A model generated the notes under the pieces. That model was not told where the DNA came from. It searched no databases and worked only from the letters and a program-made list of their open reading frames with translations. From Trypanosoma brucei (Eukaryota), in NCBI GenBank assembly GCA_000002445.1, contig AL929603.2:32001-96000 (forward strand): DNA of 64,000 bases, read 5' to 3'. Within the stretch, counting starts at the first letter, position 1. Every line of letters starts with the position of its first letter. This document shows positions 37,301 through 64,000 of the stretch, one piece after another. The position numbers and the translations under genes were made by a program.

Positions 37301-37903
37301 AAAGTCAAGAGTGTGCTCTGGCCTTGTAGAACTGTAAATGCGTGCATGTTCTGTTATTATTGTTTCCCATTTTAAAATAAAGATACTTGCAGATGTGGAG
37401 AAACGTCTCCCTTAATGCTTATGATGCACCAAATAATTCTCTCGCAAAGAAAGGAGAGAACAAATGCTCAGTACACGCGTCCCTATTTGTATCTTTCAAT
37501 GAAGGTTCTCTTGAGTGGAGTAAAGAAAAAACAAATAAAAAGCAAGAAGTATATGATGTGAGTGATAATACATAATGAAATGACCCAACAAGAGGGAAAG
37601 GAAGTTACATGCCTTCACTACAGTCATACAAATAAAGCCAGACCCTTCACACTCGTTTTACAATGTTCTGTCGTATCGCTCTGCATAAACAAAAAATTAC
37701 TAATAGGAAATGGAAATGTAAGAATAGAGTAAAAAAGTATCAAGTAGCTTGAGGATTATCGACACTCAGCTACGTGGAATGATACGTATCGCAAATTTGT
37801 GTTTGAAATGCTCACCATCCTAATGAACTTACTCGTATGTTACTTAATCCTAGGAAATACTTCTCTGTGCGCTCAAGTTACCCGACAACTTTCCTTCCAC
37901 ACC
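31400..37903. repeat. Segmental duplication (partial U+E+F segments), copy 1, paralogous to 47330-53853
   Basis: Shared strings gtagcagtagtagtagtaaggagaaagctattg (34285 and 50233). The ORF 35124-35447 is identical to 51071-51394. Confidence 0.8.
34285..34303. repeat. (GTA)n short microsatellite
   Basis: gtagcagtagtagtagtaa. Also present at 50233-50251. Confidence 0.7.
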
Positions 37904-40405: not shown

Positions 40406-43400
40406 AACTCTCTTAATATTATTAACTTAACTTCCTTTCCTTTTCTTTTTTCTCTGAAATTATAAATAACTGAAGTAAAATAATAGATAAGAAAACAATA
40501 GCGGGTGAACAGTGTAACATAATATCAAATGTAATAGAGCGCGTTAATGTTTATTCACTATAGTTTGCAGAATATGATATCATAATGTATTTGGTATTGA
40601 GAGGAACAATTTCAAAATATAGCAGCTGTAAATAAATATTTCCCTTGCTTCATTATCATGTGCTAAATATAATGAACTTCATACATCATTTCTTTAACTA
40701 TGAATAACATGCAGACAAAAAATATTACTGCCTCATATACCTGCATAAACACTTCGTATATATAATCAATATTTAAAGAGAGTCAAATTCTATTGATTAA
40801 AATCAAGTAAAACAATAAACAAAAAATTTATGGATATTAATGAAGCGAAGAAAAAGAGTATCGGCACAACACATAGATATACACACACATGAATACACAC
40901 CACACAACTACACAACTGTTCCACTGGAGTTTCCTCACTTCTGTCAATACGTAACATTCACTTGCATTGAATAAACTCATTGAAATATAAATCACTTATC
41001 CCCTCCCCCGTGTATTCACTTACTTCCAAAGGAGAATATTAAATAATGTCTGTAGGACAGGTAAAAAAAAACTGATAGTCTTTTTGCATCAGATAACCAG
41101 AGAGTATTTCTGTTTACTTTCATAATAAATAAAAACATTCTTTCACCTTCAGTTAAAATAAAATTTAATTACTTGCCTCCTCATTGTTCACAACTATCAA
41201 CAACTAATTCAGCGACACAAATTCATATGTATTTTATGTGCCATCGTTGTTTGATTCATTCACACACCTTTTATGATAGCGATAATACAACATATGGAAA
41301 ATAATTGGAATAAAATTAATACAATTAATTGAGGAAACCGTAAAAGATTATCATAACATATCTTTTATTTTCCCTCCTTTCATTTACACTGATTAATTAT
41401 GTAATGAGACAATTCCTTTTCAGTACGTGTCCACACTTATTGTATCATCATTGTAAGTTTCCTATTGCTCATATACACAAAGTTATTGGAATAACAAAAA
41501 AATAAAACAACACATCTAAATAACTTGAAAAAATATATAACAAATAAAGGTAATAAAGAAAATAAGCGTGAACAGACAGATAATAAAATGAAACACGTCT
41601 CGCACTTTCCTTCTAAATATTCAATAGTTGTATGTTACAAATAAAAACAATTACACATTATAGAAAAGAAGAGATATAATTACATTATACACCTGTATGT
41701 GGATATGTAACAGTGAGTCATAGTAGAAATAAATTGTCTAAACACAATAGTTATGGAAGATAAAATAATTCAAAATATCAATAATATTATTCTATCAACA
41801 TTCCCTTCCTTCTCCATTAAGTTTTCAAATGGTTTCAAATAATAATTCACATAATCTCATACATATGTTATGATGGGTTTTGCATGCAGTACAATTTAAA
41901 GGAAGTGTAGCTCATATAACATTTTCAAAAATAGGTATTGAATGACTGTTTGCTACCATCAATTACATTTCCAATGCCTGATTACACTTTTATATGCATG
42001 AAGGAAGTTACTGATGATAACTTTGACATGCTCGAGAATTCATAACACAAAGCGACTGCTGCATGCAATAAAAAATAAAAATAAAAATAACATCCGAATT
42101 CATTTACTGACAGATGAGTGCAATTCATTCACCCAAACTTCATAGCTGCAAATATAAACTCGCTGCTGCCAATAGGAAATAATCCCGCATAAATATTGAG
42201 TATCTGAAAATGATAGCAACGGGTTTCCATTTTTGAAATATATACATAAACTACATGAGGTATATGAAGCCATATTGGTAAAGTGTCACTACGCATGTTG
42301 CAATTTACTATCAGAAGTGTCTGCCTTATTTTATTTCTTGTGTTAATGTAACTCATGAGTATTATTCATTATTCTTTACAATACAACTGTAAGTCATTTT
42401 GCATTTTTACATATTTTCTTATTCCCTCATACTGGAAGTGTTCCACATATAATATTCCTCAATATCGTTCACAAAATAAAAATAATTTTATTTACTTCTG
42501 CATTCAGTTTCTTGTGCAGCAGTGTGTACACTAATCATCCATAAAGTTTTTAATTTGCCAAATACATCATTACGAAACTATTTTCATACACAAACACAAA
42601 CACATACAAATAAACAACCAAACATTTTTAAATGTTGTTGTGAAACGGAAATTGAATCACGGAAAATTGTGGGGCGCACACGTAATGGGCACCATGAATG
42701 CCTCTTTGGATATTCCTCTATGGATTTTCACCAGCATCATCAACTTACTTTTTGTGTAAAAAAAAACAAAAAAGAAATAAAGGTACAAATGCATTAATAA
42801 ACCCAACTCCTCAGCAGGAAATCAAGAACAGGAAGCCACGAAAAGCGTATGGCACATATGATTTTCACCTCTCAGTTACTTGAGGTGGATCGCATGATTT
42901 ACCCACCTTCTAAGAGCACACCCTCCGAGAGGCCCGATTAAAAGAAAAAAAAACGCTATGACGGTTGAAAAGACGTTTTTCATAAACCTTCACTTTATAC
43001 GTGAGGATGCATGAATAAACAATGATAACGATGAGAATGCTAACGGAAACAATGACGAACCGTGAGGATCCTAGAAAAAAAAATAAAATAAAATCATCAC
43101 GTACCTTCGCAGTAGGGAAACTTAATAAATAACAAAATATAAATATTCCCTACACAGAGGTATAGGGAGTGTTCGTCAACTTCGTAATTCTAATCAAAAA
43201 GTCTTCAAATGTATCGATCATTCGTGTAGTCAATCAAATAAGAAGTAACATGTACTACACGCACAAAAGCACACTTACAAAGCCTACAAACCCACTTGCC
43301 CCCTTTTAGAGAATACCACTCTCTAGTCAGTGATAGGAGAGGTGATATTAAAAGCATTCCCTTTATAATTATTTCTGACTCCTCAATTCGTTGCAACATA

Positions 43401-43423
43401 ACATAACATGCAAAGATGTTGCA
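37904..43423. repeat. Segmental duplication, copy 1 (RHS-d + U + G-segment), near-identical to 53854-59364
   Basis: Direct comparison of long strings. For example, 40406-40560 equals 56356-56510 base for base. 42880-43420 is almost the same as 58820-59360. Confidence 0.85.
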
Positions 43424-45915
43424 TCAGGCAGCGGGGCCACCAGCAATAGCGTTTGGTTCATCCTGGGTGATCTCCTTAACAATATTCCCTTCCATCTTCA
43501 CTTGAAACTGGTTGATTCTATTCCACAACTCTGTAGTATAATCGCCTCTGCCCCCAACTGGTTCGCACTTCTGCCTCTCCTCGATTGGCTTGCTGTCACT
43601 GTACTGTATGTAAATCAGCTCCCATTTCAAGTTTCTTGCGAGCTTATCCCATTCACCAAACAATTGTTTCATTGCCTTGATAAACTTATCTACCTTCTCT
43701 CGTGTCGTGTGATGCGTTGGTGCCACTGTCGGCTGGAGCAGAACAATTGTTCTTGTAATGATCGCTCTTCCTTCTCTATCAACAGCTGGCTCAGTTACAA
43801 AGAAAAAGGCGTCCACAACGGGGAAATTTCCCTGTACAGGTCGGTAAAGGCACCCAACCTCAATGTCTTGGCCTGTCGTTTCGGGTAAATATGACGAAGT
43901 GAAGTTGGAACACGTCCCACGGCATTACCACTTGCCAGAGCGGATACATTTGAATCCATTTCTTCTCCAACGCGAGGGAGATACCGCAGGTGCGTCACAA
44001 TCGTCTGCACAACATTTCCCATCGTGAAGGCATATATGCCCACATTTTCAAATTCATCAGCGGCCTGCTCTTTTTTCCCACGAAAAACCTTTCGAAGGTA
44101 ATTGTCTCGCATACATGCTGTGTCCGCCCACTCTCTCAATTTCTGCTCAATATCAATGGAAACAGCTCTGTTTCTGCATTCTTCTCCATTCTCAGTTACA
44201 ACCCGGACCAACTTAGCCAACCTGTATGTAGTCCCGTCCTCGCGCCATTCAACTCGACTATTCAGCACCTTCATGTAGTGTTCAGCATCGCCTCTACTGA
44301 TTTCTGCCAGTGCCTCATTTATTTCTCTAACATGGTCACAATAGGGTTTGTCACCTTCCAGTACGTGGCGGGGCAGTGGGCCCACCTTCTTAATCCATCC
44401 TTCTATTTTCTGCCATTCATTCTCAAGGTTTATGATGTGAGCTTCGGTGATTTTACTTTCGTCCAACTTCGACAGCCGCCTCCACGCAACCGCAGCCTTC
44501 AGTTCCACCTCTTCATAGCAATTGATGCAAAAGCGCTCGCAAGCCCGTGGCCGCTTCCAGCGTCTGTAGTTATTTGGATCTGGAGATGTCAACACAATTA
44601 CGGGCCACGTTTCCGGCAATTTTGTCGGTATGGGTTCATCTCTCTCTTTCGCAAAGTCGTATATAATGTAACCAAGACCTTCTTCATCAGCCAAGTCATT
44701 GACAGCATCCACTCCATCTTTTTCTTCTTCATAAAATACAACCTTTCTCGGATGATCATTTGTCGCCCTGAAGAAAATATATGCCCTACCCTTCACAAAA
44801 TAAGCGATAATCCGCAACAGCTCCGAATCGTAATGCAGCAACCTTTGGAGCAGAAACGAGCCAACACCAAATGATTTCCCAATACCTGGAGTGCCAACGA
44901 GGACGCAAGGTATCTTTTTTTTATTCACGCCTGGCCCTAACCACAAATCCAGCCTCTGCTTCACAAGATACCACACTCTCATTACCTCTCGACGAATGTA
45001 CACATCCCGGTCAAACACGTAGTCTCCTGGTTCCTCCGCACCCTCTTGAATTACACTTCGCGGAATGCGGAAACGGTTATACGGCCAACCCTTCTGCGAG
45101 GTGAGCACAGCAATCTCCAAATTACCGTGACGAGGCAGTGGGTCGCACAAGTCATAAGGCGTGTGACTGACATTCACCTCCTCTTCTGTCCACAACTCGG
45201 GCTCGCCGTCACAATTACCCACAACCTTCATGCCAAGAGGTAAATCATTGTGACCCGACTCCACATAACCCCACGTCGCATTGTATATGGATTCATATAC
45301 TCCTTTCAGTTCGACACCATCAGCTTTTTGGGCAGCTCTTTTCCTTGCTTCTTTGGCGGCCGCCAACGCTCCATCCAACCTTCCCCTCGCCATGGGACCA
45401 ACAAATTCTCTTATTTCCACTGTCCCCTTCTCCTCCCACTGACTGAGGTAGTAAATTTCTTTTTCGTCAAGGTACCTTGCTTTCCGCTTCATTTCAGAGA
45501 ATTGGTTATATAATTCTTTATATTCCTCAAACTCATCAAGCCGCCGTATCCTTCCTAGAATCCCGGCATCCAAAATATAATCCTCCGGGCTCTGGACAAA
45601 CACATCCATTGCCACATTCTCTGTGTCATACGTATTAGAGAATTTTTTCAGCAAAAAGTCATGCACTGTCATATCCCTCAAACCCGCATAATCATCCAGC
45701 AGCACATCCCTCACCTTACTATCCATTGTCCAGTTGGGCCCCCCTTCAGTTCTCTGCCGTATTTGTGGAGGCTGAGCAGCAGCAGCAGCAGCAGGAGGAG
45801 GAGGCGGCGGTACATTTTCATCCCGTGGCCTCCTCATGGGCCCTTCAAAATTATCTGCCACTTGTTGATTTTCATTATTTCCTTGTGGAGCTGCGGGACT
45901 ATTTGCTCTTGACAT
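43424..45915 (-). pseudogene. RHS, e/g subtype. Full length but frameshifted (706-aa + 130-aa ORFs).
   Basis: A 1-bp difference in a G-run (plus-strand ggg at 43883-43885, versus gggg at the paralogous 59825-59828 in RHS-g) shifts the frame after RHIYP. The downstream 130-aa ORF resumes the RHS C-terminus (DAFFFVTEPAVDREGRAII...). Confidence 0.8.
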
Positions 45916-48900
45916 AACTCTCTTAATATTATTAACTTAACTTCCTTTCCTTTCCTTTTTTCTCTGAAATTATAAATAACTGAAGTAAAATAATATATAA
46001 GGAAACAATAGCGGGTGAACAGTGTAACATAATATCAAATGTGATAGAGCAATATAATGTTTACTCACTATAGTTTGTATAATATGATATCATAATGCAT
46101 TTGGTATTGAGGGGAACAATTTCAAAATATAGCAGCTGTAAATAAATATTTCCCTTGCTTCATTATCATGTGCTAAATATAATGAACTTCATACATCATT
46201 TCTTTTTAAACCATGAATAATATGGAAACAAAAAATATTACTGCCTCATATACCTGCATAAACACTTCGTATATATAATCAATATTTAAAGAGAGTCAAA
46301 TTCTATCAATTAAAATCAAGTTAAACAAAAAACAAAAAATTTATGGATACTAATGAAACGAAGAAAAAGAGTATCGGCACAACACATAGATATACACACA
46401 TGGATACGCACTACACAACTGTTCCACTGGAGTTTCCTCACTTCTGTCAATACGTAATATTCACTTGCATTGAATAAACTCATTGAAATATAAATCACTT
46501 ATCCCCTCCCCCGTGTATTCACTTACTTCCAAAGGAGAATATTAAATAATGTCTGTAGGACAGGTAAAAAAAACTGATAGTCTTTTTGCATCAGATAACC
46601 AGAGAGTATTTCTGTTTACTTTCATAATAAATAAAAACATTCTTTCACCTTCAGTTAAAATAAAATTTAATTACTTGCCTCCTCATTGTTCACAACTATC
46701 AACAACTAATTCAGCGACACAAATTCACATGTATTTTATGTGCCTTCGTTGTTTGATTCATTCACACATCTTTTATGATGGTGATTATACAACTTATTGT
46801 AAAAAATTGGAATAAAATTAATACAATTAATTGAGGAAACCGTAAAAGATTATCATAACATATCTTTTATTTTCCCTCCCTTCATTTACACAGATTAAAT
46901 ATGTAATGATAAAATTCCTTTTCAGTACGTGTCCACACTTATTGTATCATCATTGTAAGTTTCCTATTGCTCATATACACAAAGCTATTGGAATAACAAA
47001 AACATAAAACAACACATCTAAAGAACTTGAAAAAATATATAATAAATGTAAAAGAGGATGTATGAACTGACAGATAATAAAATGAAACACGTCTCGCATT
47101 TTCCTTCTAAATATTCAATAGTTGGCGGATTACAAAACAATTACACATTATAGAAAGGAAGGAATATAATTACATTATACATCTGCATGTGGATATGTAA
47201 CAGTGAGTCATAGTAGAGATGAATTGCCTAAACACGATAGTTATGGAAGATAACATAATTCAAAATATCAAAAATATTATTCTATCAAAATTCCCTTCCT
47301 TCTCCATTAAGTTTTCAAATGGTTTCAAATAATAATTCACATAATTCCATACATATGTTATGATGGGTATTGCATGCAGTACAATTTAAAGGAAGTGCAA
47401 CTCATATAACATTTTCAAAAAAAGGTATTGAATGGTTGTTTGCTACCATCAATTACATTTCCAATGCCTAATTACACTTTTATATGCATGAAGGAAGTTA
47501 CTGATCATAACTTTGACATGCTCGAGAATCCATAACACAAAGCGACTGCTGCATGCAATAAAAAATATAAATATAAATAACATCCGAATTCATTTACTGA
47601 CAGATGAGTGCAATTCATTCATCCAAACTTCATAGCTGCAGAAATAAACTCGTTGCTTCCAATAGGAAATGATCGCGCATAAATATTGAGTATCTGAAAA
47701 TGATAGCAACGGGTTTCCATTTTTGAAATATATACATAAACTACATGATGTATATGAAGCCATATTTGTAAAGTGTCACTACGCATGTTGCAATTTACTA
47801 TCAGAAGTGTCTGCCTTATTTTATTTCTTGTGTTAATGTAACTCATGAGTATTATTCATTATTCTTTACAATACAACTGTAAGTCATTTTGCATTTTTAC
47901 ATATTTCCTTATTCTCTCATACTGGAAGTATTCCACATATAAGATTCCTCAATATCGTTCACAAAATAAAAATAATTTTATTTACTTCTGCATTCAGTTT
48001 CTCGTGTAGCAGTGTGCACTAATCATCCATAAAGTTTTTAATTTGCCAAATACATCATTACGAAACTATTTTCCACAAATAAACAAACAAACAAATCATT
48101 GGGACAATATCTTTGAGATATTTCCTTTACTACATTTGCAGTTCAGTAGTAATTAAAATACACTTTTTGTATAATTCAACACATGGTGGAATTGCAAAGA
48201 AATGTGATGGTACTTATAATCAACAAGTTCCCAATTTTCCTCATACGGTCTCCTTTCATGCCTTTACATCCATATATAATTCACAGAGAATTACTGCAAT
48301 TTCTTTCATATGCTTTCAGGATTCCATATGTCACAATACAAATAATATATATATATATATCCTCCTACATAATTTGGACAGAATATTGCTTAACATATAA
48401 ATTATCACAAACCTACGATATTACACTCTTCCTAAGAATAATAGAATCAAATTATTTCTATTTTGCATCATTACATGAAGCTTTGGAAAATGAAAAAAAA
48501 GAATCAAACAAAAGGTAATGTAAACAACACAGTTTTTTAATACAGAATATAACTTGTTTGTGAATTTCAGATGCAAACACAAAATGTTCAAACAGGGAAA
48601 CAGTAAAGGACGGTACTGGTGATGTAAGCACAAATTAATCAAAAATAGAAACATAAATAAATTTGAAACTTATAAAAACACAAATATATATGATACAAAT
48701 ATTTACCACATATTATAATTCGCCACCCTCACACTTGAATTACAAAAAGTACATAACACACATATGTGCCATCTTCTTAACATAATCATTCCAATATTTA
48801 CTCAGTATGTGTGTGTGTGTAGAAATGATGAAATGTAATTGTAACAAATCAGGCACAACACAAACAAAATATATGCATTATATTATTCTCTAAAAAGTAG

Positions 48901-51900
48901 AAGAATAAAAATCAAGAAATATTACGCAGCTTTCCTCACAAGTAATTTTGTTTCTGTGCATATATATATACATAACACGACAGCTGACAACATTAAACTC
49001 TCAATTCCATAATATCTGACGCCTGAAGTGATAATTAGCCGCGGATGCCTCTATCAAAAAACAACAGAAATAACAACATCAAAGCATGTTTTGAAAGCTT
49101 AAATAAACTTCCTCATGGATAAACCATTTGTACAAAGTTTGAGTGACAAGTAGGAGGAACAAAGAAAAAATAAAAAAAGAAGAATTAAATGGTAAAAGAA
49201 TTGCGTGTGATATAACTAAAGGATTTGTTAGGCACTACACTCATTAAACTCCAGTTTCATAAAAATACTGCAAGGCATAATATTTACTGCTTTACCGGTT
49301 ATGTGCCTCCAGCAAGCAATAATAAATACTTCGAGTATTATTCGATTTCTGATGCTATGAAGTGTGTAATAAATTAGTGCATGAGTAAAATATTCAAATG
49401 TTGGTGTTCACTTCAGATTATAAACTCTGCACTATGAATGTCTAGCGATGTTTATAATTTGAGAGAGCAAAAGTGACGGCGCTACTATTTATTTCTTCCG
49501 GTTCATGAATATATATAAATATATTTATACATATATAATCAGATGTGACATGCAAAAGCGTTTAAACATCAGGCATGAACATCTTTCCATCCATTTAAAG
49601 TAAGACGATACAATAAGGTAAGTTTAGGATGAAGTGAAGGTATCATAATGTTAATATCTTCCTTCAAGCGGAGGATTCAATTCAAATAGGCGTACTTCAC
49701 AAACAATAGTAAAATAACTGAGAAAACTTATATCACTTAATCGTTATTTCCTTCAATTCTTATTTTGAATCGCTCTGTACCGTCACACCTTCAATAAAGT
49801 ATATAGTGACGCATTTCACACATCTTCCCTAAGCCATCTCTCATAGTCATAGTTCTCAACAGCAATAATAACAAATAATGAATGGTTTAGTTCTTACCTT
49901 CCCTTTTTTACTACCCACAAGAAAGATATACGAAATAATTATCATGCTGAATAAACAGTAAGGTTTCCTCATCATCCTACGCAAAATATGAATTGAAACG
50001 ATAATTTACTAACGAAGCGGAAGTGTCTGAAAGCGTCTTTAACTCATCTCCTGTGCGGGGCGAAGAGGGTTGTGTTGTGTGGGCTTTCTAAAAATTTCAC
50101 TCTCTTGCAGACAGCTGTGTAAATAAACGGGGAGTACAGGTGTGTTTAGAGAAATATAACCGTACAAAATAATACTCTGCACTCCTAAGTCCAAAACAAC
50201 CATTCATAATGCAGGCTTTCATTAAAAAAATAAGTAGCAGTAGTAGTAGTAAGGAGAAAGCTATTGTTTTTTCTCACTCCTGCTGCCACGTACATCATGC
50301 ATGATACAACAGTTTCCATTTATTCTATAGTAGATTTTTTCACATAGCAAGGGATACTCGGAATTGTTGTGTCACTTTCGTTGTCCCAGCCATACTGTCT
50401 GCTTTTCATGGTTAAACTAAAACTCCAATGAAATCACATTGTTGTGTCATCTTTTGCAAATCACCAATGATAGTATGCCCTACATTCCTCCATGCTCGTA
50501 ACTATTTTGTTTCCACGACATTTAACCACGTCATGTGCCTCACACTAATAAATATGTTGCATATCCATGTTTGAGTCCTCAATATTTCAGGGGTCGCCTG
50601 CTGCAGCCTCACGAGAAGTGCATGTCCTGAAAAGACCCTTGTGATGGTGTGTAAAACTCCAGGGTTCTCTTTATTAACTGATGGGGAGTCGATTCGAATT
50701 CAATAGTTCCTCATTTTAGTTAAGGCATCGGAACTCCAGCCGAACATCCTCAGGCAACTTCACTTTGGAGAGGAATGACTTTAGATCAAACAATGCTACA
50801 GACTGGTCATGGAGAGTATTTAAATACTGGGAAAAGTGACCCAATGGGAGATATGCCTCATAATCATCCCTGCTCTTTTTAGCCTTTGGTCATGCAATAA
50901 ATCAACGCCTTCTTCCAAATCTGTGTTTCCCCCAATCACAAAGAATAGCACATAACTCATCCTGTCATATGTCTCTCTGAAACTGTGCCAATGATACGCG
51001 GCTGCTTCATTATTTGGGCATACTTTTCTACAATGCGCAATTCTGACTCCTTCTTTGATACTTTCTCTCTTTGTTTCTTTCTGCATCATCTGTGCTATTC
51101 TTAATGCTCCAACCCTCATCAAATCGCTTACTCGCTGCTTGCATCATCCTCTGTCAAATCCACGGAAGGGAAATCATTCCCACATTCATTTCCTATTGGA
51201 GAGGTGAAGTCTTTTTTTTTCCTCATCCCGTGAGGTCACCTTTGTTTTCCCTTGTGAGTGTCAAGGAATGCTGTGCAATCGATAATTTGGGAAAGTTATT
51301 CACCGTTATAAGTCCCGGCTTCCCTCACACTGGGGCCGCACATTCCTTCCAATTGTATCTTACATCAAAAACATTAAAAGAATCGACTTGCTGACGGCAG
51401 CTGTCACATATCTGAGATACCGCACTGTGCTTCGTTGGAGTTCCATTGTGTAGATGTGCTTTCCCATTTGTATTAATAATATGTTGTCAATGTCGTGCTC
51501 CATTGCAACTACTGCCGCTGCGCGTGTCAGCAGTGCTCTTCTCTTTATGGGATGTTCTATCATTACGTATGGTCTTTTCAGTATGGTATCACATTTTTCC
51601 TTTTGTGGTAATGGCTATGATTTTTCCTCTTTCCTCCAGAGGTTCCTCCCTATGACTTTTCTCACACTGGCAATATCCTTTTCCCAGTTGATATTTACGC
51701 ATCGTGTGACTCTGTGGGTATCGCTTTTGAATTTCTTTGGAAGGTTCCCCCCAAAATCCACTATTGAGGCTTGCCTGCCGTGTGAGTGTGGTATAACATT
51801 TTTCTCTTTTTTTTCGGAGCTGTGTAATTTCTTTTTGCCATCGCATGGCTGGGTGTAATTCAGGTCACTACTCATATTGCAACTGGATACCACTCTGGAC

Positions 51901-53853
51901 GGAACTTCCTGCAAGATATTATCGAATCACCATTACAACATGTGTTGTGTTTGTTTGATGGGTTCACCTGTTACCGTATTGTAAAGACGGACCCCAAAAA
52001 CAACATCCGCGTCGGTGTGTCCAATAGAGATGATGGAAGAGTTCTCCTGTACTGAAATGGCGTTGCTCTCTGAGAGTCGTAAACTTACAACAACAAATAG
52101 AAGTGCAGTTACATCCTATGCTGGAATGCGGTAATGATTTTCCGCCAATGCATAAAAACACCGCATGATGAATTCCCTGTTCCTCACATGTTTTAGTCCT
52201 CAGCCACATTCACTTTCCTATTCTATTGGCTCCTGAAACCATTGCCATGATGTACGGATGGCTTTGTGTGTGGGAACTGCAATAAAAATAATAATTATTA
52301 TTATAACTCCTTTCACCAATGAGTTTACTATTGGTTGTAAAAGTGCTCTTGGTGCCACTCCATTATTCTTTTTGAGTCCCCAGCTTTTGAGGGGCTACTG
52401 TATTTTTTAAAAAGAGTGATGCACCGTTTTATTCTCCACCCCTTTCAGGTGACTTCCTCCTGCATCGTTTTTACTTTCCCATTGTAGAATGTTTCTCAAG
52501 GTGTTTCCTTTGTGAAGCTTTGGTTATGCTATAAGTAAAGACCACTCAACTCCATGCTTCCGGGACCTGTTGTTGCATTTATTCCCCTTTAGTTGCTGCA
52601 AATTTGTTTATTTGACAAGTTGTAGTGCAATACTTCACTTGACCATATGTGTAACATCGTGTCTCGTTGCTTTATAAAAATTCAAAAAGAACACATCAGG
52701 TGATATTCTTCCGTTTTTACTTCGTACATTCACATCTCTTCCCGTCAGTTCGGAAACTCCCACACAAACTCACCACTCTGTGAAGATTTGTAGTTTCCGT
52801 TAGTGATGGGTGTACTGAAGTGGACATGTTTGGCACTTCAAAACTAAGTTTTTTTAAACTTACACCTTCCTTCTTGCATAGAGCTTCAGTGCGAGAGTAA
52901 AAGAATAGTTGAGTGTTATGAGAAAACATAAGCCCAAATATTCTCGATGCAAGTTTTCAATAAAAGCAAACACATTAAGATGGTTCAGTGAACACATGCA
53001 GTATCGTCCATAGCAAAGGTATTATTTACACCCAATAAACAACTCAAACAAATAACACCAGCATACATATCGCAAACATATAAATTGCACCTGCACAAAC
53101 AAATAAAAACTGCTGTGACTCATCATGTGTAAAATATTATGAGCACAAAAACATAAATGTCCTTGACCTTCCATAAATGTATAACACAATATTATTTTGC
53201 ATTATCATCGGGAAAATATTTATATATATATATATATGTATATTCAGCCAAAAGTCAAGAGTGTGCTCTGGCCTTGTAGAACTGTAAATGCGTGAATGTT
53301 CTGTTATTATTGTTTCCCATTGTAAAATGAAGATACCTGCAGATGTGGAGAAACGTCTCCTTTAATGCTTATGATGCATCAAATAATTCTCTCGTAAAGA
53401 AAGGAGCGAGCAAATGCTCAGTACACGTGTCCCTATTTGTATCTTTCAATGAAGGTTCTCTTGAGTGGAGTAAAGAAAAAACAAATAAAAAGCAAGAAGT
53501 ATATGATGTGAGTGATAATACATAATGAAATGACCCAACAAGAGGGAAAGGAAGTTACATGCCTTCACTACAGTCATACAAATAAAGCCAGATCCTTTAC
53601 ACTCGTTTCACAATGTTCTGTCGTATCGCTCTGCATAAAAAAAAAAATACTAATAGGAAATGGAAATGTAAGAAGAAAGTAAAAAAGTATCAAATAGCTC
53701 GAGGGTTATCGACACTCAGCTACGTGGAATGATACGTATCGCAAATTTGTCTTTGAAATGATCACCATCCTAATGAACTTACTCGTATGTTACTTAATCC
53801 TAGGAAATACTTCTCTGTGCGCTCAAGTTACCCGACAACTTTCCTTCCACACC

Positions 53854-56355
53854 CTATGCATTGTTACCACCTCTATTGTTAACTCCGTTGTTATTTTCAC
53901 CTCTTGTTTTCAATTCAACGTATAGTGCAATAATGTGTTTATAAAGTGAGACCGCGAACTGACGCACTTCCCTTTTCCAAAATCTTTCCTCAACCTCATT
54001 ATTTTGCCCTTCATCTCTGTCAGTCCTTTCACAGCACTGCGGCTTCGTAATTTTTTCGCTGTCAACCCTTTGGACATAAATTATTTCCCATACCATATCA
54101 TTGGAAAAATTGTCCCAACCTTGGAAGTAACTTCGCAAATACCTCTTCATCTTAAATAACCCACCGGTGCTGCAGGGATGTCTACCGGAAACTGTGTACT
54201 GCAGTCCCACAAAAGTCTTCGGGCTCTCAACGAAAAAGAACGCATCAACAACTGGGAAACTCCTTGATTGCGGCTTGTACAATTTCATATATTGAATTTC
54301 AGCTCCAGCTACAATTGGAACATCCTCGGGAACCACAATCGAAGGACCAATGAGTCTTGGTTCTTGCAGCACCTGCAGCACACTTTGTGGAATTTGATTC
54401 CTAGCAAATGAAAGGCCCTGTAACTCCCTTGCCAACTCAGTTAGTGTATTCTCATGCGACAATGCTTCAATGCCACTCTTCTCAAACATGTAGGCGGCGA
54501 TAGCGCGGTTAGACAGCAGAGCAGACATTGCAGCATATTTATCCGTTAGCCAAGGTATCAGAAAGTCTAAAATAGCTTGTCCCGTGTAAGATGAAAGCGG
54601 TCTGCAGCGATACATTTCACACAGGAGCTTCTCCTCCTTCACTCGAACAACCCCTACTAACTTGTGTGATACTTCATCTGTTTGCCACATAGCTGCGTTT
54701 TGGAAATATTTAGCGTAATCATTCATATCATCATCTTTCATTTTGCCAATGGCTTCCTGAACCTTTCCCTCCTGCCTATTATACGAACTAAGACGACCAA
54801 TATGACGAAGCAGTGGACCAACGATACGAATGCGAGCTTGAATTTCTTGCCATTCACTTTCAATTTTCTCCTTTGCAACTGGAGGACTCCACTTGTAAGC
54901 AGGAGCAATTTTCCCCCATCTCGATATGTGTATGGCTTCCAAATCCTTCAATGTATCACAGTTCATGTAAATATCTGAGGCGGTGTTTTGCTTGGACCAT
55001 TCATGGAATTGCTTGACGTTTGGAGAGCTCAAAGCAATACCGGCACAACCAGCAGGTGGTTTCGTCGGAGCAGGATGGTCCTTGTCCACATCGAATATAA
55101 CGTATCCCTTGATATCCTCACCGCTACGTGATCCTCCGATTATTTGCTCAACAACTGTAAATGCATTCCCATAATCATTGTAAAACGTAACATATCCTGC
55201 TCGACCACCTATGGGTTTGTGAAACACATACGCCTTACCCCTCACAACGTATATGATAATCTGAAGCTGACTCGCTTCATAATGCAGTAGTTTGTATAAC
55301 AGTAGGGATCCCACGGAAAACGATTTACCAATACCAGGTGTACCAATAAGAACATTAGACGCATCGTCAACAATCACTTCATCCATAAGCCACCGGTTAA
55401 GCACATTCTCCACCTTGTACCACACCCTCAGTGCTTCCCTGCGGATATAAACATCACTTTTAAAAACATACTCCACTCCCTTCTCATGATTAATATCATA
55501 ATCATTTGGGTTCTTTTCGAAAGACGTGTATGGCCAACCCATTTGAGATGTAAGCACAGCAATCTCCAAGTTACCGTGACGGGGAAGTGGTTCGTTCATA
55601 GTTTCCGGAGTGTGACTGACATCAACCTCCTCCTTCGTCCACATGTGTGGCGGTCTTCCATTGAACACTTTCATGCCAAGTGGCTCTTCATCATAACCCG
55701 ACTCCACATAACCCCACGTCGCATTGTATATAGAATCATATACTCCTTTAAGTTCGCTACCATCAGCTGTTTGGTGAGCTCGCTTTTCCGCTCTCTTGGC
55801 GGCCGTCACCGCTCCATCCAACCTTCCCCTCGCCACGGGACCAACAAATTCTCTTATTTCCACTGTCCCCTTCTCCTCCCACTGACTGAGGTAGTAAATT
55901 TCTTTTTCGTCAAGGTAGTCTACCTTCTCAGACAGATCAATAGCTGTCTTCACTGTTTTAAACTCATTAGTGCCTTGTATATCCTCAAGAATCTCAGCAT
56001 CAACAATATATTTTCTGGGATTCTTAACAAAAATGGGCATCCTAACATTTTCTGCCTCAGCCACCGCAAAAGTCCCGCCAACGAACTTCTGAATAAAGTC
56101 GTTCACTGTCATATCCCTCAAACCCGCATAATCATCCAGCAGCACATCCCTCACCTTACTATCCATTGTCCAGTTGGGCCCCCCTTCAGTTCTCTGCCGT
56201 ATTTGTGGAGGCTGAGCAGCAGCAGCAGCAGCAGGAGGAGGAGGCGGCGGTACATTTTCATCCCGTGGCCTCCTCATGGGCCCTTCAAAATTATCTGCCA
56301 CTTGTTGATTTTCATTATTTCCTTGTGGAGCTGCGGGACTATTTGCTCTTGACAT
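53854..56355 (-). CDS. Retrotransposon hot spot (RHS) protein, d/f subtype (833 aa), intact. Near-identical paralogue of 37904-40405.
   Basis: Differs from RHS-d at 2 residues (AAQTADG vs AHQTADG; QGRIRIV vs QARIRIV). Flanks are also duplicated. Confidence 0.88.
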   Translation of the reverse strand: MSRANSPAAPQGNNENQQVADNFEGPMRRPRDENVPPPPPPAAAAAAQPPQIRQRTEGGPNWTMDSKVRDVLLDDYAGLRDMTVNDFIQKFVGGTFAVAEAENVRMPIFVKNPRKYIVDAEILEDIQGTNEFKTVKTAIDLSEKVDYLDEKEIYYLSQWEEKGTVEIREFVGPVARGRLDGAVTAAKRAEKRAHQTADGSELKGVYDSIYNATWGYVESGYDEEPLGMKVFNGRPPHMWTKEEVDVSHTPETMNEPLPRHGNLEIAVLTSQMGWPYTSFEKNPNDYDINHEKGVEYVFKSDVYIRREALRVWYKVENVLNRWLMDEVIVDDASNVLIGTPGIGKSFSVGSLLLYKLLHYEASQLQIIIYVVRGKAYVFHKPIGGRAGYVTFYNDYGNAFTVVEQIIGGSRSGEDIKGYVIFDVDKDHPAPTKPPAGCAGIALSSPNVKQFHEWSKQNTASDIYMNCDTLKDLEAIHISRWGKIAPAYKWSPPVAKEKIESEWQEIQARIRIVGPLLRHIGRLSSYNRQEGKVQEAIGKMKDDDMNDYAKYFQNAAMWQTDEVSHKLVGVVRVKEEKLLCEMYRCRPLSSYTGQAILDFLIPWLTDKYAAMSALLSNRAIAAYMFEKSGIEALSHENTLTELARELQGLSFARNQIPQSVLQVLQEPRLIGPSIVVPEDVPIVAGAEIQYMKLYKPQSRSFPVVDAFFFVESPKTFVGLQYTVSGRHPCSTGGLFKMKRYLRSYFQGWDNFSNDMVWEIIYVQRVDSEKITKPQCCERTDRDEGQNNEVEERFWKREVRQFAVSLYKHIIALYVELKTRGENNNGVNNRGGNNA

Positions 56356-59300
56356 AACTCTCTTAATATTATTAACTTAACTTCCTTTCCTTTTCTTTTT
56401 TCTCTGAAATTATAAATAACTGAAGTAAAATAATAGATAAGAAAACAATAGCGGGTGAACAGTGTAACATAATATCAAATGTAATAGAGCGCGTTAATGT
56501 TTATTCACTATAGTTTGCAGAATATGATATCATAATGTATTTGGTATTGAGAGGAACAATTTCAAAATATAGCAGCTGTAAATAAATATTTCCCTTGCTT
56601 CATTATCATGTGCTAAATATAATGAACTTCATACATCATTTCTTTAACTATGAATAACATGCAGACAAAAAATATTACTGCCTCATATACCTGCATAAAC
56701 ACTTCGTATATATAATCAATATTTAAAGAGAGTCAAATTCTATTGATTAAAATCAAGTAAAACAATAAACAAAAAATTTATGGATATTAATGAAGCGAAG
56801 AAAAAGAGTATCGGCACAACACATAGATATACACACACATGAATACACACCACACAACTACACAACTGTTCCACTGGAGTTTCCTCACTTCTGTCAATAC
56901 GTAACATTCACTTGCATTGAATAAACTCATTGAAATATAAATCACTTATCCCCTCCCCCGTGTATTCACTTACTTCCAAAGGAGAATATTAAATAATGTC
57001 TGTAGGACAGGTAAAAAAAAACTGATAGTCTTTTTGCATCAGATAACCAGAGAGTATTTCTGTTTACTTTCATAATAAATAAAAACATTCTTTCACCTTC
57101 AGTTAAAATAAAATTTAATTACTTGCCTCCTCATTGTTCACAACTATCAACAACTAATTCAGCGACACAAATTCATATGTATTTTATGTGCCATCGTTGT
57201 TTGATTCATTCACACACCTTTTATGATAGCGATAATACAACATATGGAAAATAATTGGAATAAAATTAATACAATTAATTGAGGAAACCGTAAAAGATTA
57301 TCATAACATATCTTTTATTTTCCCTCCTTTCATTTACACTGATTAATTATGTAATGAGACAATTCCTTTTCAGTACGTGTCCACACTTATTGTATCATCA
57401 TTGTAAGTTTCCTATTGCTCACATACATAAAGTTATTGGAATAACAAAAAAATAAAACAACACATCTAAATAACTTGAAAAAATATATAACAAATAAAGG
57501 TAATAAAGAAAATAAGCGTGAACAGACAGATAATAAAATGAAACACGTCTCGCACTTTCCTTCTAAATATTCAATAGTTGTATGTTACAAATAAAAACAA
57601 TTACACATTATAGAAAAGAAGAGATATAATTACATTATACACCTGTATGTGGATATGTAACAGTGAGTCATAGTAGAAATAAATTGTCTAAACACAATAG
57701 TTATGGAAGATAACATAATTCAAAATATTAAAAATATTATTCTATCAACATTCCCTTCCTTCTCCATTAAGTTTTCAAATGGTTTCAAATAATAATTCAC
57801 ATAATCTCATACATATGTTATGATGGGTTTTGCATGCAGTACAATTTAAAGGAAGTGTAGCTCATATAACATTTTCAAAAATAGGTATTGAATGACTGTT
57901 TGCTACCATCAATTACATTTCCAATGCCTGATTACACTTTTATATGCATGAAGGAAGTTACTGATGATAACTTTGACATGCTCGAGAATTCATAACACAA
58001 AGCGACTGCTGCATGCAATAAAAAATAAAAATAAAAATAACATCCGAATTCATTTACTGACAGATGAGTGCAATTCATTCACCCAAACTTCATAGCTGCA
58101 AATATAAACTCGCTGCTGCCAATAGGAAATAATCCCGCATAAATATTGAGTATCTGAAAATGATAGCAACGGGTTTCCATTATTTAAATATATGCATAAA
58201 CTACATGAGGTATATGAAGCCATATTGGTAAAGTGTCACTACGCATGTTGCAATTTACTATCAGAAGTGTCTGCCTTATTTTATTTCTTGTGTTAATGTA
58301 ACTCATGAGTATTATTCATTATTCTTTACAATACAACTGTAAGTCATTTTGCATTTTTACATATTTTCTTATTCCCTCATACTGGAAGTGTTCCACATAT
58401 AATATTCCTCAATATCGTTCACAAAATAAAAATAATTTCATTTCCTTCTGTATTCAGTTTCTTGTGCAGCAGTGTGTACTAATCATCCATAAAGTTTTTA
58501 ATTTGCCAAATACATCATTACGAAACTATTTTCCACAAATAAACAAACAAATAAACAACCAAACATTTTTAAATGTTGTTGTGAAACGGAAATTGAATCA
58601 CGGAAAATTGTGGGGCGCACACGTAATGGGCACCATGAATGCCTCTTTGGATATTCCTCTATGGATTTTCACCAGCATCATCAACTTACTTTTTGTGTAA
58701 AAAAAAACAAAAAAGAAATAAAGGTACAAATGCATTAATAAACCCAACTCCTCAGCAGGAAATCAAGAACAGGAAGCCACGAAAAGCGTATGGCATATAT
58801 GATTTTCACCTCTCAGTTACTTGAGGTGGATCGCATGATTTACCCACCTTCTAAGAACACACCCTCCGAGAGGCCCGATTAAAAGAAAAAAAAACGCTAT
58901 GACGGTTGAAAAGACGTTTTTCATAAACCTTCACTTTATACGTGAGGATGCATGAATAAACAATGATAACGATGAGAATGCTAACGGAAACAATGACGAA
59001 CCGTGAGGATCCTAGAAAAAAAAATAAAATAAAATCATCACGTACCTTCACAGTAGGGAAACTTAATAAATAACAAAATATAAATATTCCCTACACAGAG
59101 GTATAGGGAGTGTTCGTCAACTTCGTAATGCTAATCAAAAAGTCTTCAAATGTATCGATCATTCGTGTAGTCAATCAAATAAGAAGTAACATGTACTACA
59201 CGCACAAAAGCACACTTACAAAGCCTACAAACCCACTTGCCCCCTTTTAGAGAATACCACTCTCTAGTCAGTGATAGGAGAGGTGATATTAAAAGTATTC

Positions 59301-59364
59301 CCTTTATAATTATTTCTGACTCCTCAATTCGTTGCAACATAACATAACATGCAAAGATGTTGCA

Positions 59365-60797
59365 TCAGGCAGCGGGGCCACCAGCAATAGCGTTTGGTTC
59401 ATCCTGGGTGATCTCCTTAACAATATTCCCTTCCATCTTCACTTGAAACTGGTTGATTCTATTCCACAACTCTGTAGTATAATCGCCTCTGCCCCCAACT
59501 GGTTCGCACTTCTGCCTCTCCTCGATTGGCTTGCTGTCACTGTACTGTATGTAAATCAGCTCCCATTTCAAGTTTCTTGCGAGCTTATCCCATTCACCAA
59601 ACAATTGTTTCATTGCCTTGATAAACTTATCTACCTTCTCTCGTGTCGTGTGATGCGTTGGTGCCACTGTCGCCTGGAGCAGAACAATTGTTGTTGTAAT
59701 GATCGCTCTTCCTTCTCTATCAACAGCTGGCTCAGTTACAAAGAAAAAGGCGTCCACAACGGGGAAATTTCCCTGTACAGGTCGGTAAAGGCACCCAACC
59801 TTGATGTCTTGGCCTGTCGTTTCGGGGTAAATATGACGAAGTGAAGTTGGAACACGTCCCACGGCATTACCACTTGCCAGAGCGGATACATTTGAATCCA
59901 TTTCTTCTCCAACGCGAGGGAGATACCGCAGGTGCGTCACAATCGTCTGCACAACATTTCTCATCGTGAAGGCAAATATGCCCACATTTTCAAATTCATC
60001 AGCGGCCCGCTCTTCTTTCCCACGAAAAACCTTTCGAAGGTAATTGTCTCGCATACATGCTGTGTTCGCCCACACTCTCAATTTCTGCTCAATATCAATG
60101 GAAACAGCTCTGTTTCTGCATTCTTCTCCATTCTCAGTTACAACCCGGACCAACTTAGCTAACATGTAAGTAGTCCCGTCCTGGCGCCATTGAACTCGAC
60201 TATTCAGCACCTTCATGTAGTGACTATCATCGCCTCTACTGATTTCTGCCAGTGCCTCATTTATTTCTCTAACGCGGCCCTTGTAGCGTTTTTCACCTTC
60301 CAGTACTTGGCGGGCCAGTGGGCCCACCTTCTTAATCCATCCTTCTATTTTCTGCCATTCATTCTCAAGGTTTATGATGTGAGCTTCGGTGATTTTACTT
60401 TCGTCCAACTTCGACAGCCGCCTCCACGCAACCGCAGCCTTCAGTTCCACCTCTTCATAGCAATTGATGCAAAAGCGCTCGCAAGCCCGTGGCCGCTTCC
60501 AGCGTCTGTAGTTATTTGGATCTGGAGATGTCAACACAATTACGGGCCACGTTTCCGGCAATTTTGTCGGTATGGGTTCATCTCTCTCTTTCGCAAAGTC
60601 GTATATAATGTAACCAAGACCTTCTTCATCAGCCAAGTCATTGACAGCATCCACTCCATCTTTTTCTTCTTCATAAAATACAACCTTTCTCGGATGAACA
60701 TTTGTCGCCCTGAAGAAAATATATGCCCTACCCTTCACAAAATAAGCGATAATCCGCAACAGCTCCGAATCGTAATGCAGCAACCTTTGGAGCAGAA
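59365..60797 (-). pseudogene. RHS, e/g subtype. 3' portion only; the gene is split by an ingi insertion at 60797|60798.
   Basis: Collinear with RHS-e from LLQRLLHYDSELL to the C-terminus AIAGGPAA. The in-frame 492-aa ORF runs into ingi sequence. The 5' part (including the P-loop) must lie beyond the ingi, outside the window. Confidence 0.85.
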
Positions 60798-63700
60798 TTT
60801 TTTTTTTGAATTTTCTTCGTGCCTTCGTGAGAGTTTCTCCCAACTGGCGCGGCCATCAGCCATCACCGTAGAGCCCTGAGATGCTATCGGTCTGGCGACT
60901 GTGGCAGAGTCTCCCTTTTTTATTCATCCTAACACACCCTCTATAATTTTTGTTGTAGCTCCGCATATGAACGGAATACAGTAGATGGGGCGAGAAGCCC
61001 CCCTCACCCCGGACTCTCCCAAAGATGTCAATTAGCAATCCTTTTGTTTTGATTTTTGTTATTCGTTTATTATTCTCTCCCCCTCTTTCTGTTTCTGTTG
61101 CTTGTTGACTGCATACCTCCTCTGTCTCTGAGGGTGTCTGGACTATTCCTGCGTCCGGTGCTTTTCCTGCTAGCTCCACATTCGGCAATAAGGGGGGAAG
61201 TTGCAGAAGGGAGAGTGGGTTGTATGACTGTTACCTTAGGTGAGGACTTCACCTGCGGCCGGCTCCGTTCAACCGCAATGAGAAACTGCGCCAGCCTTTT
61301 GGAGAAACATACATCCTGCACACACTCACCTTCTACCGCAAATCTGACACGTAACTCCTTCAAACCGGGACAGCTCATCAAGTGCAGCGACGTTTCTTCG
61401 CAGTCGCCGCGTTGGCTGGTAACAGCGCGCTCTACCTTCATACCGTGCATCTTCTTTTGATGTAGGGTGAGGCCAGTTTTGCTAGCACACTGCCTTCCGC
61501 ATGTCGGGCACACCAACATGGATGTGTTTGTATGCGGGGAATCAGTGGCACACAATTTTGTGCTTTTGCTGCATTTAAGCTCGACTCCCTCACCTTTGTG
61601 GAAAGCCTTACAGTGTCGGATGAGGGAGTCCCTGCAACTGAGCACTTTTTGGCACACACCACACTGCACCTCGCCCTTCCCCGGGACGTCAACGTTTCCC
61701 TCACGGGCACGCTTACGAGGGAATTGCACCAACACCACGGTACCGTCCTCCGTCACTATGCTTTTATGTTTGAATTTCTTGTGTAGTGTCAGGGAAGAAC
61801 GTGTACCGAAGCTCGCCTCGCACAGGTCACATTGAAACGGCAGCTTCCGTGTATCCTGAGAGGCTGGCGCTGCTGGGGCTTTACCATCTCCTTGCACTGA
61901 GTCCTCGTTCTCTCGCCCCCTTTTCACGCGGCAACTGCCGCTGCCTATGCCATGTATTGTTCTAAGGTGGTGTAGTAGTCTGCCTGGCACTGCGAATTTG
62001 GAGGCACAGATGGTACAATGAAGCACCTGCGGTCTCATCGGGACTCGTGTGCTCGATGGTAGGGGAACGATCGCCACCACTGGAGGGGGCTCCGGGGGGA
62101 TATCCACTGCAGGTGTTGCATCGCCGTATTTGATCCTCCGGAGGGCATCAGCTCGCACAAAGCCATGTTTGTTTACCATATGCGTTACAGCACTCGAGCG
62201 GCATTGGTATGTGGCATCACATTCCGTACATTTGGTCGGTTCGGAGGTTCTTTGAAGAGTGCGTGTCGCAACAGTTGGGGCTGTTTGTATTGTTGGCCCT
62301 ATCTCTGCATGTTGCGGGTTGCACCATCGGCACTGTGGAGGCACACTCGGGTTAATCTTTCGCAACATCCATCCATAGTGTCTTGAAGACCCAACCCGAA
62401 AGCGTGCCAGTGCCGTTTCTTCTTCCCTCGTCAGTTCTTCCTTATGTTTTGTTGGAAAGTGGTTGCCCGTGATACCAAACCTATGAGTGTTCTCATGGAC
62501 TTCTTCCGACCTAAGCACTCGCTTCGCATAAGCAATGATGTCGGGGATCCATGTGTCTCGCAACTGTGGTAAATCTGCGGCCTTTTTGGCCATGTCATCG
62601 CAAACCTCATTCCGTTTCACGCCACAATGGCCAAACACAAATTGCAGTCGGATACGTATCTTCCTTCTCTGAACTTGAAGCAGAAGCCTCCATAGTCGTC
62701 TTAGAATTGGGTCCGTTACGGCTAGGGGGCCTGTCTGCAGTGCTGTTAACATTGACAGCGAGTCAGAGAAGATGGACAACCTGCTCGGTGTGGTTCTGTA
62801 TGCCGGAAGCCATTTCAGCAGCCGTTGCAGTCCTATCTCTAATGCTACGCATTCCGCTCTGTAACTGCATGAAAGTTCCCCTGCTCCTGTCTTAGGTGCA
62901 CAAATCAGCGTGTTGTTTCTATAGAGCAGGGCAGCTGCTCCGGACTTCTCACCGAGGGACACGGATCCATCAGTCCACAATTCGTAGTGCTCTCGCCGCG
63001 GTGGCTCCTTCCCCCTCCGTGCAAAATGTCGTTCAATCCACTTTTCGGAAGCCTCCCTTTTGACATCGTCAGGGTCATCAGCGCACACAGGCTTTATCTG
63101 CGTGTGAAATATCGGTCGGCAGCTGTGGCGGAGCGTCGATGTCTCTAGTGGGTGCTCGCGTGGCTCAATGCGGAGGTGGGGGTAGGACCGCATGATACGG
63201 GAATGTAGGGCTCTGACTGGGTGTTTGCTGTGGTATACTTCTTCAGCACTGCGCCGCAAACATCCGCCTCGTGACTCACACATCAGCATGAATTTCATGC
63301 TGCGCACAAGAGTGGCCGTCTTGAGTGGCAGGAGGTTTGCTTCCAGCAGAGAGTCCTCTTTGCGCGTCCCATGCGGTATGCCGGCTATGATGCGACTGGC
63401 TTTGTGTTGTGCTGATGCAAGGAGGTCGCGACTTCGTTCCGAAGCGTCCCAGTACCATACCTCAATGCCATACATGGTGTGTGCCTGTACGAGTGCTAGA
63501 TAAAAAGTTCTCAGTACTTGTCGTCTTGGCCCCCATGTAGAAGCTGAGATGGCTGCTATCTGCAGTAGTCGGAAGTCCATCTTGCGTCTCGTTTCGGCCG
63601 CATGTGTTGCCATCCCCTGCAGACACTGGAATGTTACTCCTAGAAGCTTCGGTGTCCTGTCAGCTCCTATTCTTTCACCGTCCAGTTGTAATGTAAGGGG

Positions 63701-64000
63701 GTGGCGCTCTATACACCCGAAGAGTGTGCACTTTGTTTTCGCTACGTTGACAGACATGAAGTACTCTTTTGACCACTGTAACACCACGTTTAGACCGCAT
63801 TGTAGTGTGTGGTTGATGACATCCCTCTCTGTGTGCCTCGCAAGTAGCGTTAGGTCGTCTGCAAAGAATCCGTGCTGCAGTAACGGCACCTCTGCAAGGC
63901 GTTGGCTCAACGAGTTCATGACAATAATGAACATGATTGGGCCAAGGACAGTTCCTTGTGGCACTCCTCGCTCAAATGTTCTGCTTCTGGAAAGCTTCTC
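60798..64000 (-). mobile_element. ingi-type non-LTR (LINE-like) retrotransposon, 3' 3.2 kb. Its poly(A) tail abuts RHS-g. The element continues past the window end.
   Basis: The plus-strand T10 run at 60798-60807 is the poly(A) tail on the minus strand. A roughly 260-bp 3' UTR follows, then a long ORF. The junction sits exactly where RHS-g homology to RHS-e ends (gcagaa|tttttttttt). Confidence 0.85.
61070..64000 (-). CDS. ingi ORF (partial; N-terminal part outside the window). Encodes reverse transcriptase, an RNase H-like region and C-terminal C2H2 zinc fingers.
   Basis: RT motifs: PQGTVLGP ... FADDLTLLARH (YxDD-type). RNase H-like TDGS. At least 5 C-x2-C ... H-x3-5-H fingers (CTECDATYQCRSSAVTHMVNKHG, CDLCEASFGTRSSLTLHKKFKHK, CGVCQKVLSCRDSLIRHCKAFHKG, CPTCGRQCASKTGLTLHQKKMHG). 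The frame is open to position 64000. The track's apparent M at 63964 is a GTG codon. Confidence 0.85.
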   Translation of the reverse strand, partial: EKLSRSRTFERGVPQGTVLGPIMFIIVMNSLSQRLAEVPLLQHGFFADDLTLLARHTERDVINHTLQCGLNVVLQWSKEYFMSVNVAKTKCTLFGCIERHPLTLQLDGERIGADRTPKLLGVTFQCLQGMATHAAETRRKMDFRLLQIAAISASTWGPRRQVLRTFYLALVQAHTMYGIEVWYWDASERSRDLLASAQHKASRIIAGIPHGTRKEDSLLEANLLPLKTATLVRSMKFMLMCESRGGCLRRSAEEVYHSKHPVRALHSRIMRSYPHLRIEPREHPLETSTLRHSCRPIFHTQIKPVCADDPDDVKREASEKWIERHFARRGKEPPRREHYELWTDGSVSLGEKSGAAALLYRNNTLICAPKTGAGELSCSYRAECVALEIGLQRLLKWLPAYRTTPSRLSIFSDSLSMLTALQTGPLAVTDPILRRLWRLLLQVQRRKIRIRLQFVFGHCGVKRNEVCDDMAKKAADLPQLRDTWIPDIIAYAKRVLRSEEVHENTHRFGITGNHFPTKHKEELTREEETALARFRVGSSRHYGWMLRKINPSVPPQCRWCNPQHAEIGPTIQTAPTVATRTLQRTSEPTKCTECDATYQCRSSAVTHMVNKHGFVRADALRRIKYGDATPAVDIPPEPPPVVAIVPLPSSTRVPMRPQVLHCTICASKFAVPGRLLHHLRTIHGIGSGSCRVKRGRENEDSVQGDGKAPAAPASQDTRKLPFQCDLCEASFGTRSSLTLHKKFKHKSIVTEDGTVVLVQFPRKRAREGNVDVPGKGEVQCGVCQKVLSCRDSLIRHCKAFHKGEGVELKCSKSTKLCATDSPHTNTSMLVCPTCGRQCASKTGLTLHQKKMHGMKVERAVTSQRGDCEETSLHLMSCPGLKELRVRFAVEGECVQDVCFSKRLAQFLIAVERSRPQVKSSPKVTVIQPTLPSATSPLIAECGASRKSTGRRNSPDTLRDRGGMQSTSNRNRKRGRE

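Follow-up and report, generated by a model that had tools for sequence, protein, structure and literature searches.

An ingi retrotransposon at the hot spot of a tandemly duplicated RHS gene in Trypanosoma brucei

In this study, we have examined the border between an RHS gene and the retrotransposon that interrupts it, in 64,000 nucleotides of Trypanosoma brucei DNA (contig AL929603.2 of assembly GCA_000002445.1, positions 32,001 to 96,000 of the forward strand; this whole stretch is called the window, and positions given without an accession are counted within it). We are highly confident that RHS-g, the RHS copy at 59365-60797, received a copy of Tbingi (ingi) through target-primed reverse transcription, in the same orientation as the gene. 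What can be observed directly is the junction, the identity and orientation of the element, its target signature, and a shared junction in other members of the family. An ingi at the hot spot of an RHS gene is already a well known feature, and RHS-g is a textbook case of it in the reference genome.

The junction in RHS-g and the inserted element

On the plus strand, positions 60780-60797 read gcaacctttggagcagaa and are followed by ten T residues (60798-60807) and then by gaattttcttcg, which begins ga. The paralogue RHS-e, uninterrupted at this site, reads on its plus strand from 44838 through the same gcaacctttggagcagaa directly into acgagccaacacc (in which acgagcc ends at 44862). By self-BLAST, 57000-60797 is 98.5% identical to 41050-44855 and the alignment ends exactly at 60797/44855. 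When their RHS 3' halves are aligned with MAFFT, the two copies agree at each of the last 99 bases up to the break. The minus strand of RHS-e around the hot spot is GTPGIGKSFGVGSFLLQRLLHY, and the break corresponds to a position after the first base of a Phe codon (T/TT). A first-pass annotation made from the letters alone had ended the RHS-g homology at 60797, after gcagaa, had placed the break in this Phe codon and had taken the T10 run for an ingi poly(A) on the minus strand; all three points agree with what we found. Its distance of about 15 codons past the P-loop was a miscount: in GTPGIGKS-FGVGS-F, five full codons lie between GKS and the break, which falls inside the sixth, and the broken residue is the 14th when counted from the first G of GTPGIGKS. 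The RHS hot spot has been described as lying five codons downstream of the ATP/GTP-binding motif (PMC7563717).

That the interrupted gene belongs to the RHS family, as had been proposed, is borne out by a match to the Pfam RHSP P-loop domain (PF07999, E = 5e-128, profile positions 18-312 of 312). As the match starts at profile position 18, the domain has been cut just after Walker A, and the frame stays open down to 59365; the N-terminal RHS_N and DUF7578 regions of RHS-g would be situated on the far side of the ingi. The features at and beyond the break are as follows (L001 to L004 are our labels for loci outside the window).

59365-60797, minus strand: 3' half of RHS-g, which begins with base 2 of the hot-spot Phe codon and ends with the stop codon at 59365-59367 (Pfam RHSP and identity with RHS-e)
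60786-60797, minus strand: predicted 3' copy of a 12-bp target-site duplication, TTCTGCTCCAAA, by analogy with RIME-interrupted RHS copies
60798-60807, minus strand: poly(A) tail of the ingi, seen as A10 on the minus and as T10 on the plus strand, in the same place as the A9-A10 tails of L002, L003 and L004
60808-61069, minus strand: ingi 3' untranslated end, the 3' RIME half common to ingi and RIME (RIME match)
61070-64000, minus strand: C-terminal 976 codons of the ingi open reading frame, with the end of the reverse transcriptase, RNase H and C2H2 zinc fingers (Pfam and translation), open to the window edge

Several comparisons support the identification of the inserted DNA as a Tbingi non-LTR (long terminal repeat) retrotransposon lying in the orientation of the RHS gene. 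An ingi is 5.25 kb long, with a 4.75-kb core between two RIME halves (PMC3447711). The minus strand of 60808-64000 is collinear, without a break, with positions 2052-5252 of a T. equiperdum ingi (L001) at 96.8% identity; that ingi totals 5252 nt, starts with CCCTGGCGATGCC and has the 79-bp 5' signature (Pr77) and the AP-endonuclease (Exo_endo_phos domains), which in the copy of the window would lie past 64000. In this alignment, window position 64000 equals position 2052 of 5252, which would leave about 2051 nt of the element beyond the window. At the other end, the A10 tail is preceded by GAAGAAAATTC, as it is in L002, L003 and L004, and the tails begin after GAAGAAAATT(T)C. Over 60801-61045, approximately the last 245 nt of the ingi, the identity is 94.3% with the 3' half (L001 14277-14519) of a 499-nt RIME that is flanked by target-site duplications, and 93.8% with the RIME of L003. 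Within the coding region, a 964-residue open reading frame (61070-63964, minus strand) matches the Pfam domains RVT_1 (2.5e-15), RNase_H (2.2e-9) and zf-C2H2_4 (5.5e-7), and a protein search gave 96% identity to a T. equiperdum reverse transcriptase. Sequence alignment found no second ingi or RIME within the 64-kb window.

An open reading frame of the minus strand at 59365-60843 starts with a TTG within the ingi 3' end, crosses the poly(A) as KKK and enters the RHS frame (...RRKFKKKILLQRLLHY...). No ATG precedes residue 210, and the ATG-started RHS-g fragment would be 283 residues long. This frame is probably meaningless, the form that the RHS-g 3' half would take in lists of open reading frames.

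The empty target site in the sister copy

The target signature of Tbingi and TbRIME (ingi4) has been given as 5'-AxxxxxxxTxxxGTxGGxTxxx^xTxTxxTxxxxx-3', where the arrow is the first-strand cleavage and the next 12 nt are duplicated, so that the target-site duplication is 12 bp long (PMC3820030). A perfect match occurs once in the whole window, on both strands together, where 0.18 would be expected. This match, AAATCATTTGGTGTTGGCTCGT^TTCTGCT, is the hot spot of RHS-e; all ten specified positions are satisfied and the cleavage arrow coincides with the break in RHS-g. The proposal that the insertion lies at the fixed RHS hot spot is thus upheld both by this arrow and by the distance of five codons from the ATP/GTP motif. 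In the five other uninterrupted RHS copies of the window, the signature is found at the same place with one mismatch. Most of its specified positions would correspond to the first or second base of the codons for K, V, G, S and L beside Walker A, and their location inside this conserved coding stretch may have kept the target across RHS subfamilies.

43795-45915, minus strand: RHS-e, uninterrupted at the hot spot and representing the state before insertion (Pfam DUF7578, RHS_N and full RHSP)
44849-44877, minus strand: empty target site in RHS-e, with the perfect ingi4 signature AxxxxxxxTxxxGTxGGxTxxx^xTxTxxT and the arrow between 44856 and 44855
47331-60797, no strand assigned: second of two tandem copies of a segmental duplication with a unit of about 15.93 kb, the first being 31401-47330 (self-BLAST)
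53854-56355: RHS1

RHS-e had been called an intact paralogue, which holds across the hot spot and fails elsewhere. Compared with RHS-g it has one C fewer (a 1-bp deletion near 43886; RHS-g 59827), and its frame is shifted and ends at 706 residues; owing to this deletion close to its 3' end, RHS-e is a frameshifted pseudogene, intact across the hot spot only. Its exact product was not found in the protein collection.

RHS-e and RHS-g are sister copies in the duplication. Positions 31401-44855 and 47331-60797 are 97.5% identical over 13,490 columns of the self-BLAST, in an alignment that also stops at 60797/44855, and the ingi is present in the second duplicate only. Each unit contains one RHS1 gene (833 residues) and one gene of the RHS-e/g type, and the array is regular: the unit runs past the hot spot of RHS-e into the 5' half of that gene, and the next unit follows. 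Since the sister copy keeps an intact target, the ingi most likely inserted after the 15.9-kb tandem duplication. An older stretch related to the 15.93-kb unit is found at 19540-23080.

The reading frame of the element is free of stops over all 976 codons within the window, and the same region is interrupted in three other ingi copies, with longest open runs of 812, 779 and 941 codons. On the basis of this difference the element may be young and is possibly active; that it is a full-length, coding-competent copy, young enough to have arrived after the local duplication, is a tentative suggestion that we regard as rather doubtful. If it were true, the window would offer a datable pair of filled and empty sites on one chromosome together with a candidate active source element, and an intact ingi would be one candidate among the potentially active copies.

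The same site in other RHS genes

We compared the junction with those of other RHS pseudogenes, as the first-pass annotation had suggested. T. brucei RHS/ingi entries were few in the protein searches (7, 18 and 29 hits), hence the outside comparison consists of four RIME- or ingi-interrupted RHS junctions, from T. equiperdum and T. b. gambiense.

L001, T. equiperdum CM010673.1: RIME in an RHS4-type gene, with TTTTGCTTCATT on both sides, a 12/12 duplication starting one base into the same Phe codon
L001, T. equiperdum CM010673.1, 4167-9418: ingi joined to an RHS-g-type 3' half at the same site, with a non-RHS 5' flank, no poly(A) and no duplication
L003, T. b. gambiense FN554974.1: RIME in an RHS1-type gene, flanked by TACTGTTATACA and TTCTGTTATACA, an 11/12 duplication at the same base
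L004, T. equiperdum CM010676.1, 10771 and 16026: ingi in an RHS4-type gene, with the 5' flank TTTTACTTCATT and, on the 3' side, A9 and then TGCTTCATT, at most 3 nt from the canonical base
28266-30836 of the window: RHS4, uninterrupted at the hot spot

The junction base is that of RHS-g in three of the four cases (the L001 RIME, the L001 ingi and the L003 RIME) and at most 3 nt away in L004, so that none of the four lies away from the conserved site, and every element compared is oriented like its host gene. The empty counterpart of the L001 RIME site is the RHS4 of the window, on which the BLAST segments overlap at 29824-29836. As the duplications of the RIME cases begin at the same base, 60786-60797 would by analogy be the right stretch for the predicted 12-bp duplication in RHS-g. 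These junctions also bear on the idea that the break was made by joining pieces in the assembly, or that similarity ends there by chance. The region is certainly of the highly repetitive kind (RHS arrays, ingi) in which assemblies fail; nevertheless, T. equiperdum and T. b. gambiense, which were assembled independently, are broken at the same base, the poly(A) lies precisely where ingi and target meet, and the break falls on the cleavage arrow of the one ingi4 signature that is perfect within the window. We therefore give an artefact very little credence.

The ingi of L001 deserves closer attention, as it shares with the window both the RHS subtype and an ingi at the same base, with 95.6% identity over 6.2 kb. 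L001 was considered as the orthologue of the window and rejected, because the order of RHS types differs and the identity is only about 95%; on these grounds it is a paralogous or rearranged cluster. The resemblance could nonetheless mean that the junction was inherited, an older ingi-bearing RHS pseudogene having been copied by segmental duplication or gene conversion, with RHS-e coming from an uninterrupted donor or being repaired by conversion. Patchy divergence between the RHS copies points in the same direction, suggesting gene conversion as it does. The closest relatives of RHS-g and RHS-e are however each other (98.5%), each being about 95% identical to L001, so that inheritance would require a clean loss of the ingi from RHS-e. 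Moreover, the ingi of the window is no nearer to that of L001 (96.8%) than to unrelated copies (96.3% and 96.0%, and 98.1% for a partial copy in L003), and the tails are unlike, A10 here and none in L001. Inheritance is thus unlikely in our judgement, and independent ingi hits at the same base in the window and in L001 are plausible, given that the two elements are not specially close and that their tails differ.

The patches themselves lie at 60274-60292, with 9 substitutions in 19 nt relative to 44332-44350, and at 60223-60227, where substitutions are also dense, between copies that are otherwise 98.5% identical (MAFFT). They look like short gene-conversion tracts from another RHS.

A different concern is that two ingi copies may have recombined, joining the 3' half of RHS-g to unrelated upstream DNA, in which case no RHS 5' half and no second duplication would be found beyond the element. 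The ingi of L001 is in exactly such a state: its 5' flank, ACTTACCGTAGA, belongs to a stretch in which VSG pseudogenes occur, its 3' flank is RHS, its 3' end lacks a poly(A) (GAAGAAAATTTCTGCTCC) and there is no target-site duplication, a combination that ingi copies could have produced by recombining, or that a deletion could have left. The two flanks of the L004 ingi also match imperfectly, with no clean 12-bp duplication between them, which may reflect slippage in the tail and T run or a chimeric pseudogene. In the window, on the other hand, the tandem array is regular and there is no sign of rearrangement, and one would most simply expect to find an RHS 5' half at about 66.05-67.1 kb. We accordingly hold recombination to be improbable here, and think it reasonably probable that an RHS 5' half with its target-site duplication is present beyond the ingi.

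A proposed insertion route and its relation to known systems

Based on these observations, we infer the nicking chemistry, the target-site duplication, the RHS 5' half and the timing of a target-primed insertion as follows. The ingi endonuclease would recognise the signature where it overlaps the codons just after Walker A (K-S-F-G-V-G-S-F-L-L), and would nick the plus strand of the window between the equivalents of 44855 and 44856. The freed 3'-OH (...gagcagaa-3') could then prime the copying of the ingi RNA from its poly(A). Reverse transcription primed at the nick and beginning from the poly(A) would account for the plus-strand order gagcagaa-T10-gaattttcttcg. A second nick at a distance of 12 nt would give the 12-bp duplication TTCTGCTCCAAA at the other end of the ingi, near the window equivalent of 66051. 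The RHS 5' half should follow the ingi 5' end, with ...GGCTCGT (...GGTGTTGGCTCGT) as the flank expected beside the TTCTGCTCCAAA copy. The outcome would be an RHS pseudogene split five codons past its P-loop.

Some points weigh against this route. The positions of the ingi 5' end, of the second copy of the duplication and of the RHS 5' half fall beyond the window end at 64000, and the L001 ingi, in the same RHS subtype and at the same site, has a non-RHS 5' flank without duplication, showing that an ingi at the hot spot need not have an RHS 5' half. The sequence at the end of the primer, ...GCAGAA, is not complementary to poly(A), which leaves its annealing to the tail unexplained by sequence. 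Finally, the perfect signature match may be partly circular: RHS sites may be among the Tbingi/TbRIME flanks from which the signature was derived, and the match is not fully independent evidence.

Elsewhere in the window, a 50-bp repeat with the consensus ACGCAGTATACTGCCACCCCTGTGAGAATACTTTTAGTACAGGCGAGTAC is present at 1-8153 in 163 tandem copies (95% matches). As the 50-bp repeats of T. brucei are described as expression-site-proximal (PMC3447711), the RHS array abuts a boundary of this kind. A 516-residue RHS copy on the minus strand at 18655-20205, whose RHSP domain ends at profile position 180 of 312, is another shortened member of the family and is unconnected with the hot spot.

Four RHS proteins of the window are exact matches to TREU927 entries (XP_846380.1, XP_846383.1, XP_846389.1 and XP_846392.1, annotated RHS4 and RHS1). 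Bringaud et al. are said to have first described the RHS family and its hot spot in 2002 from three clusters, one of them the chromosome Ia cluster, and we take the RHS cluster of the window (TREU927 chromosome 1) to be one of the clusters of that original description. As the family is named for exactly such insertions, the significance of our finding beyond confirmation is small. What is mildly new is that the 976 ingi codons within the window are unbroken, unlike those of the three other copies examined. The locus also makes a clean teaching example: one sister duplicate offers an empty site with a perfect signature and the other, at a distance of 15.9 kb, the filled one.

RIME- and ingi-interrupted RHS pseudogenes of T. 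brucei are known (PMC7563717 and PMC6393297), and RHS-g resembles them in species and strain, codon distance, orientation relative to the gene and junction base. It differs from them in nothing substantial, and particular to the present copy are only the empty tandem sister and the unbroken frame of the ingi within the window. Compared with the site-specificity established for Tbingi and TbRIME, RHS-e fits the ingi4 signature at ten of ten positions, the break is at the arrow, and the tail and 3' end are alike. The RHS-e site lies inside a selectively constrained coding stretch, and this constraint is a plausible cause of the persistence of the site. A more distant parallel is provided by the RHS genes of T. 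cruzi with their L1Tc and NARTc insertions, which belong to the same family and have a hot spot in the 5' coding region (PMC7563717). There, the elements are of another subclade with another target signature (PMC3820030).

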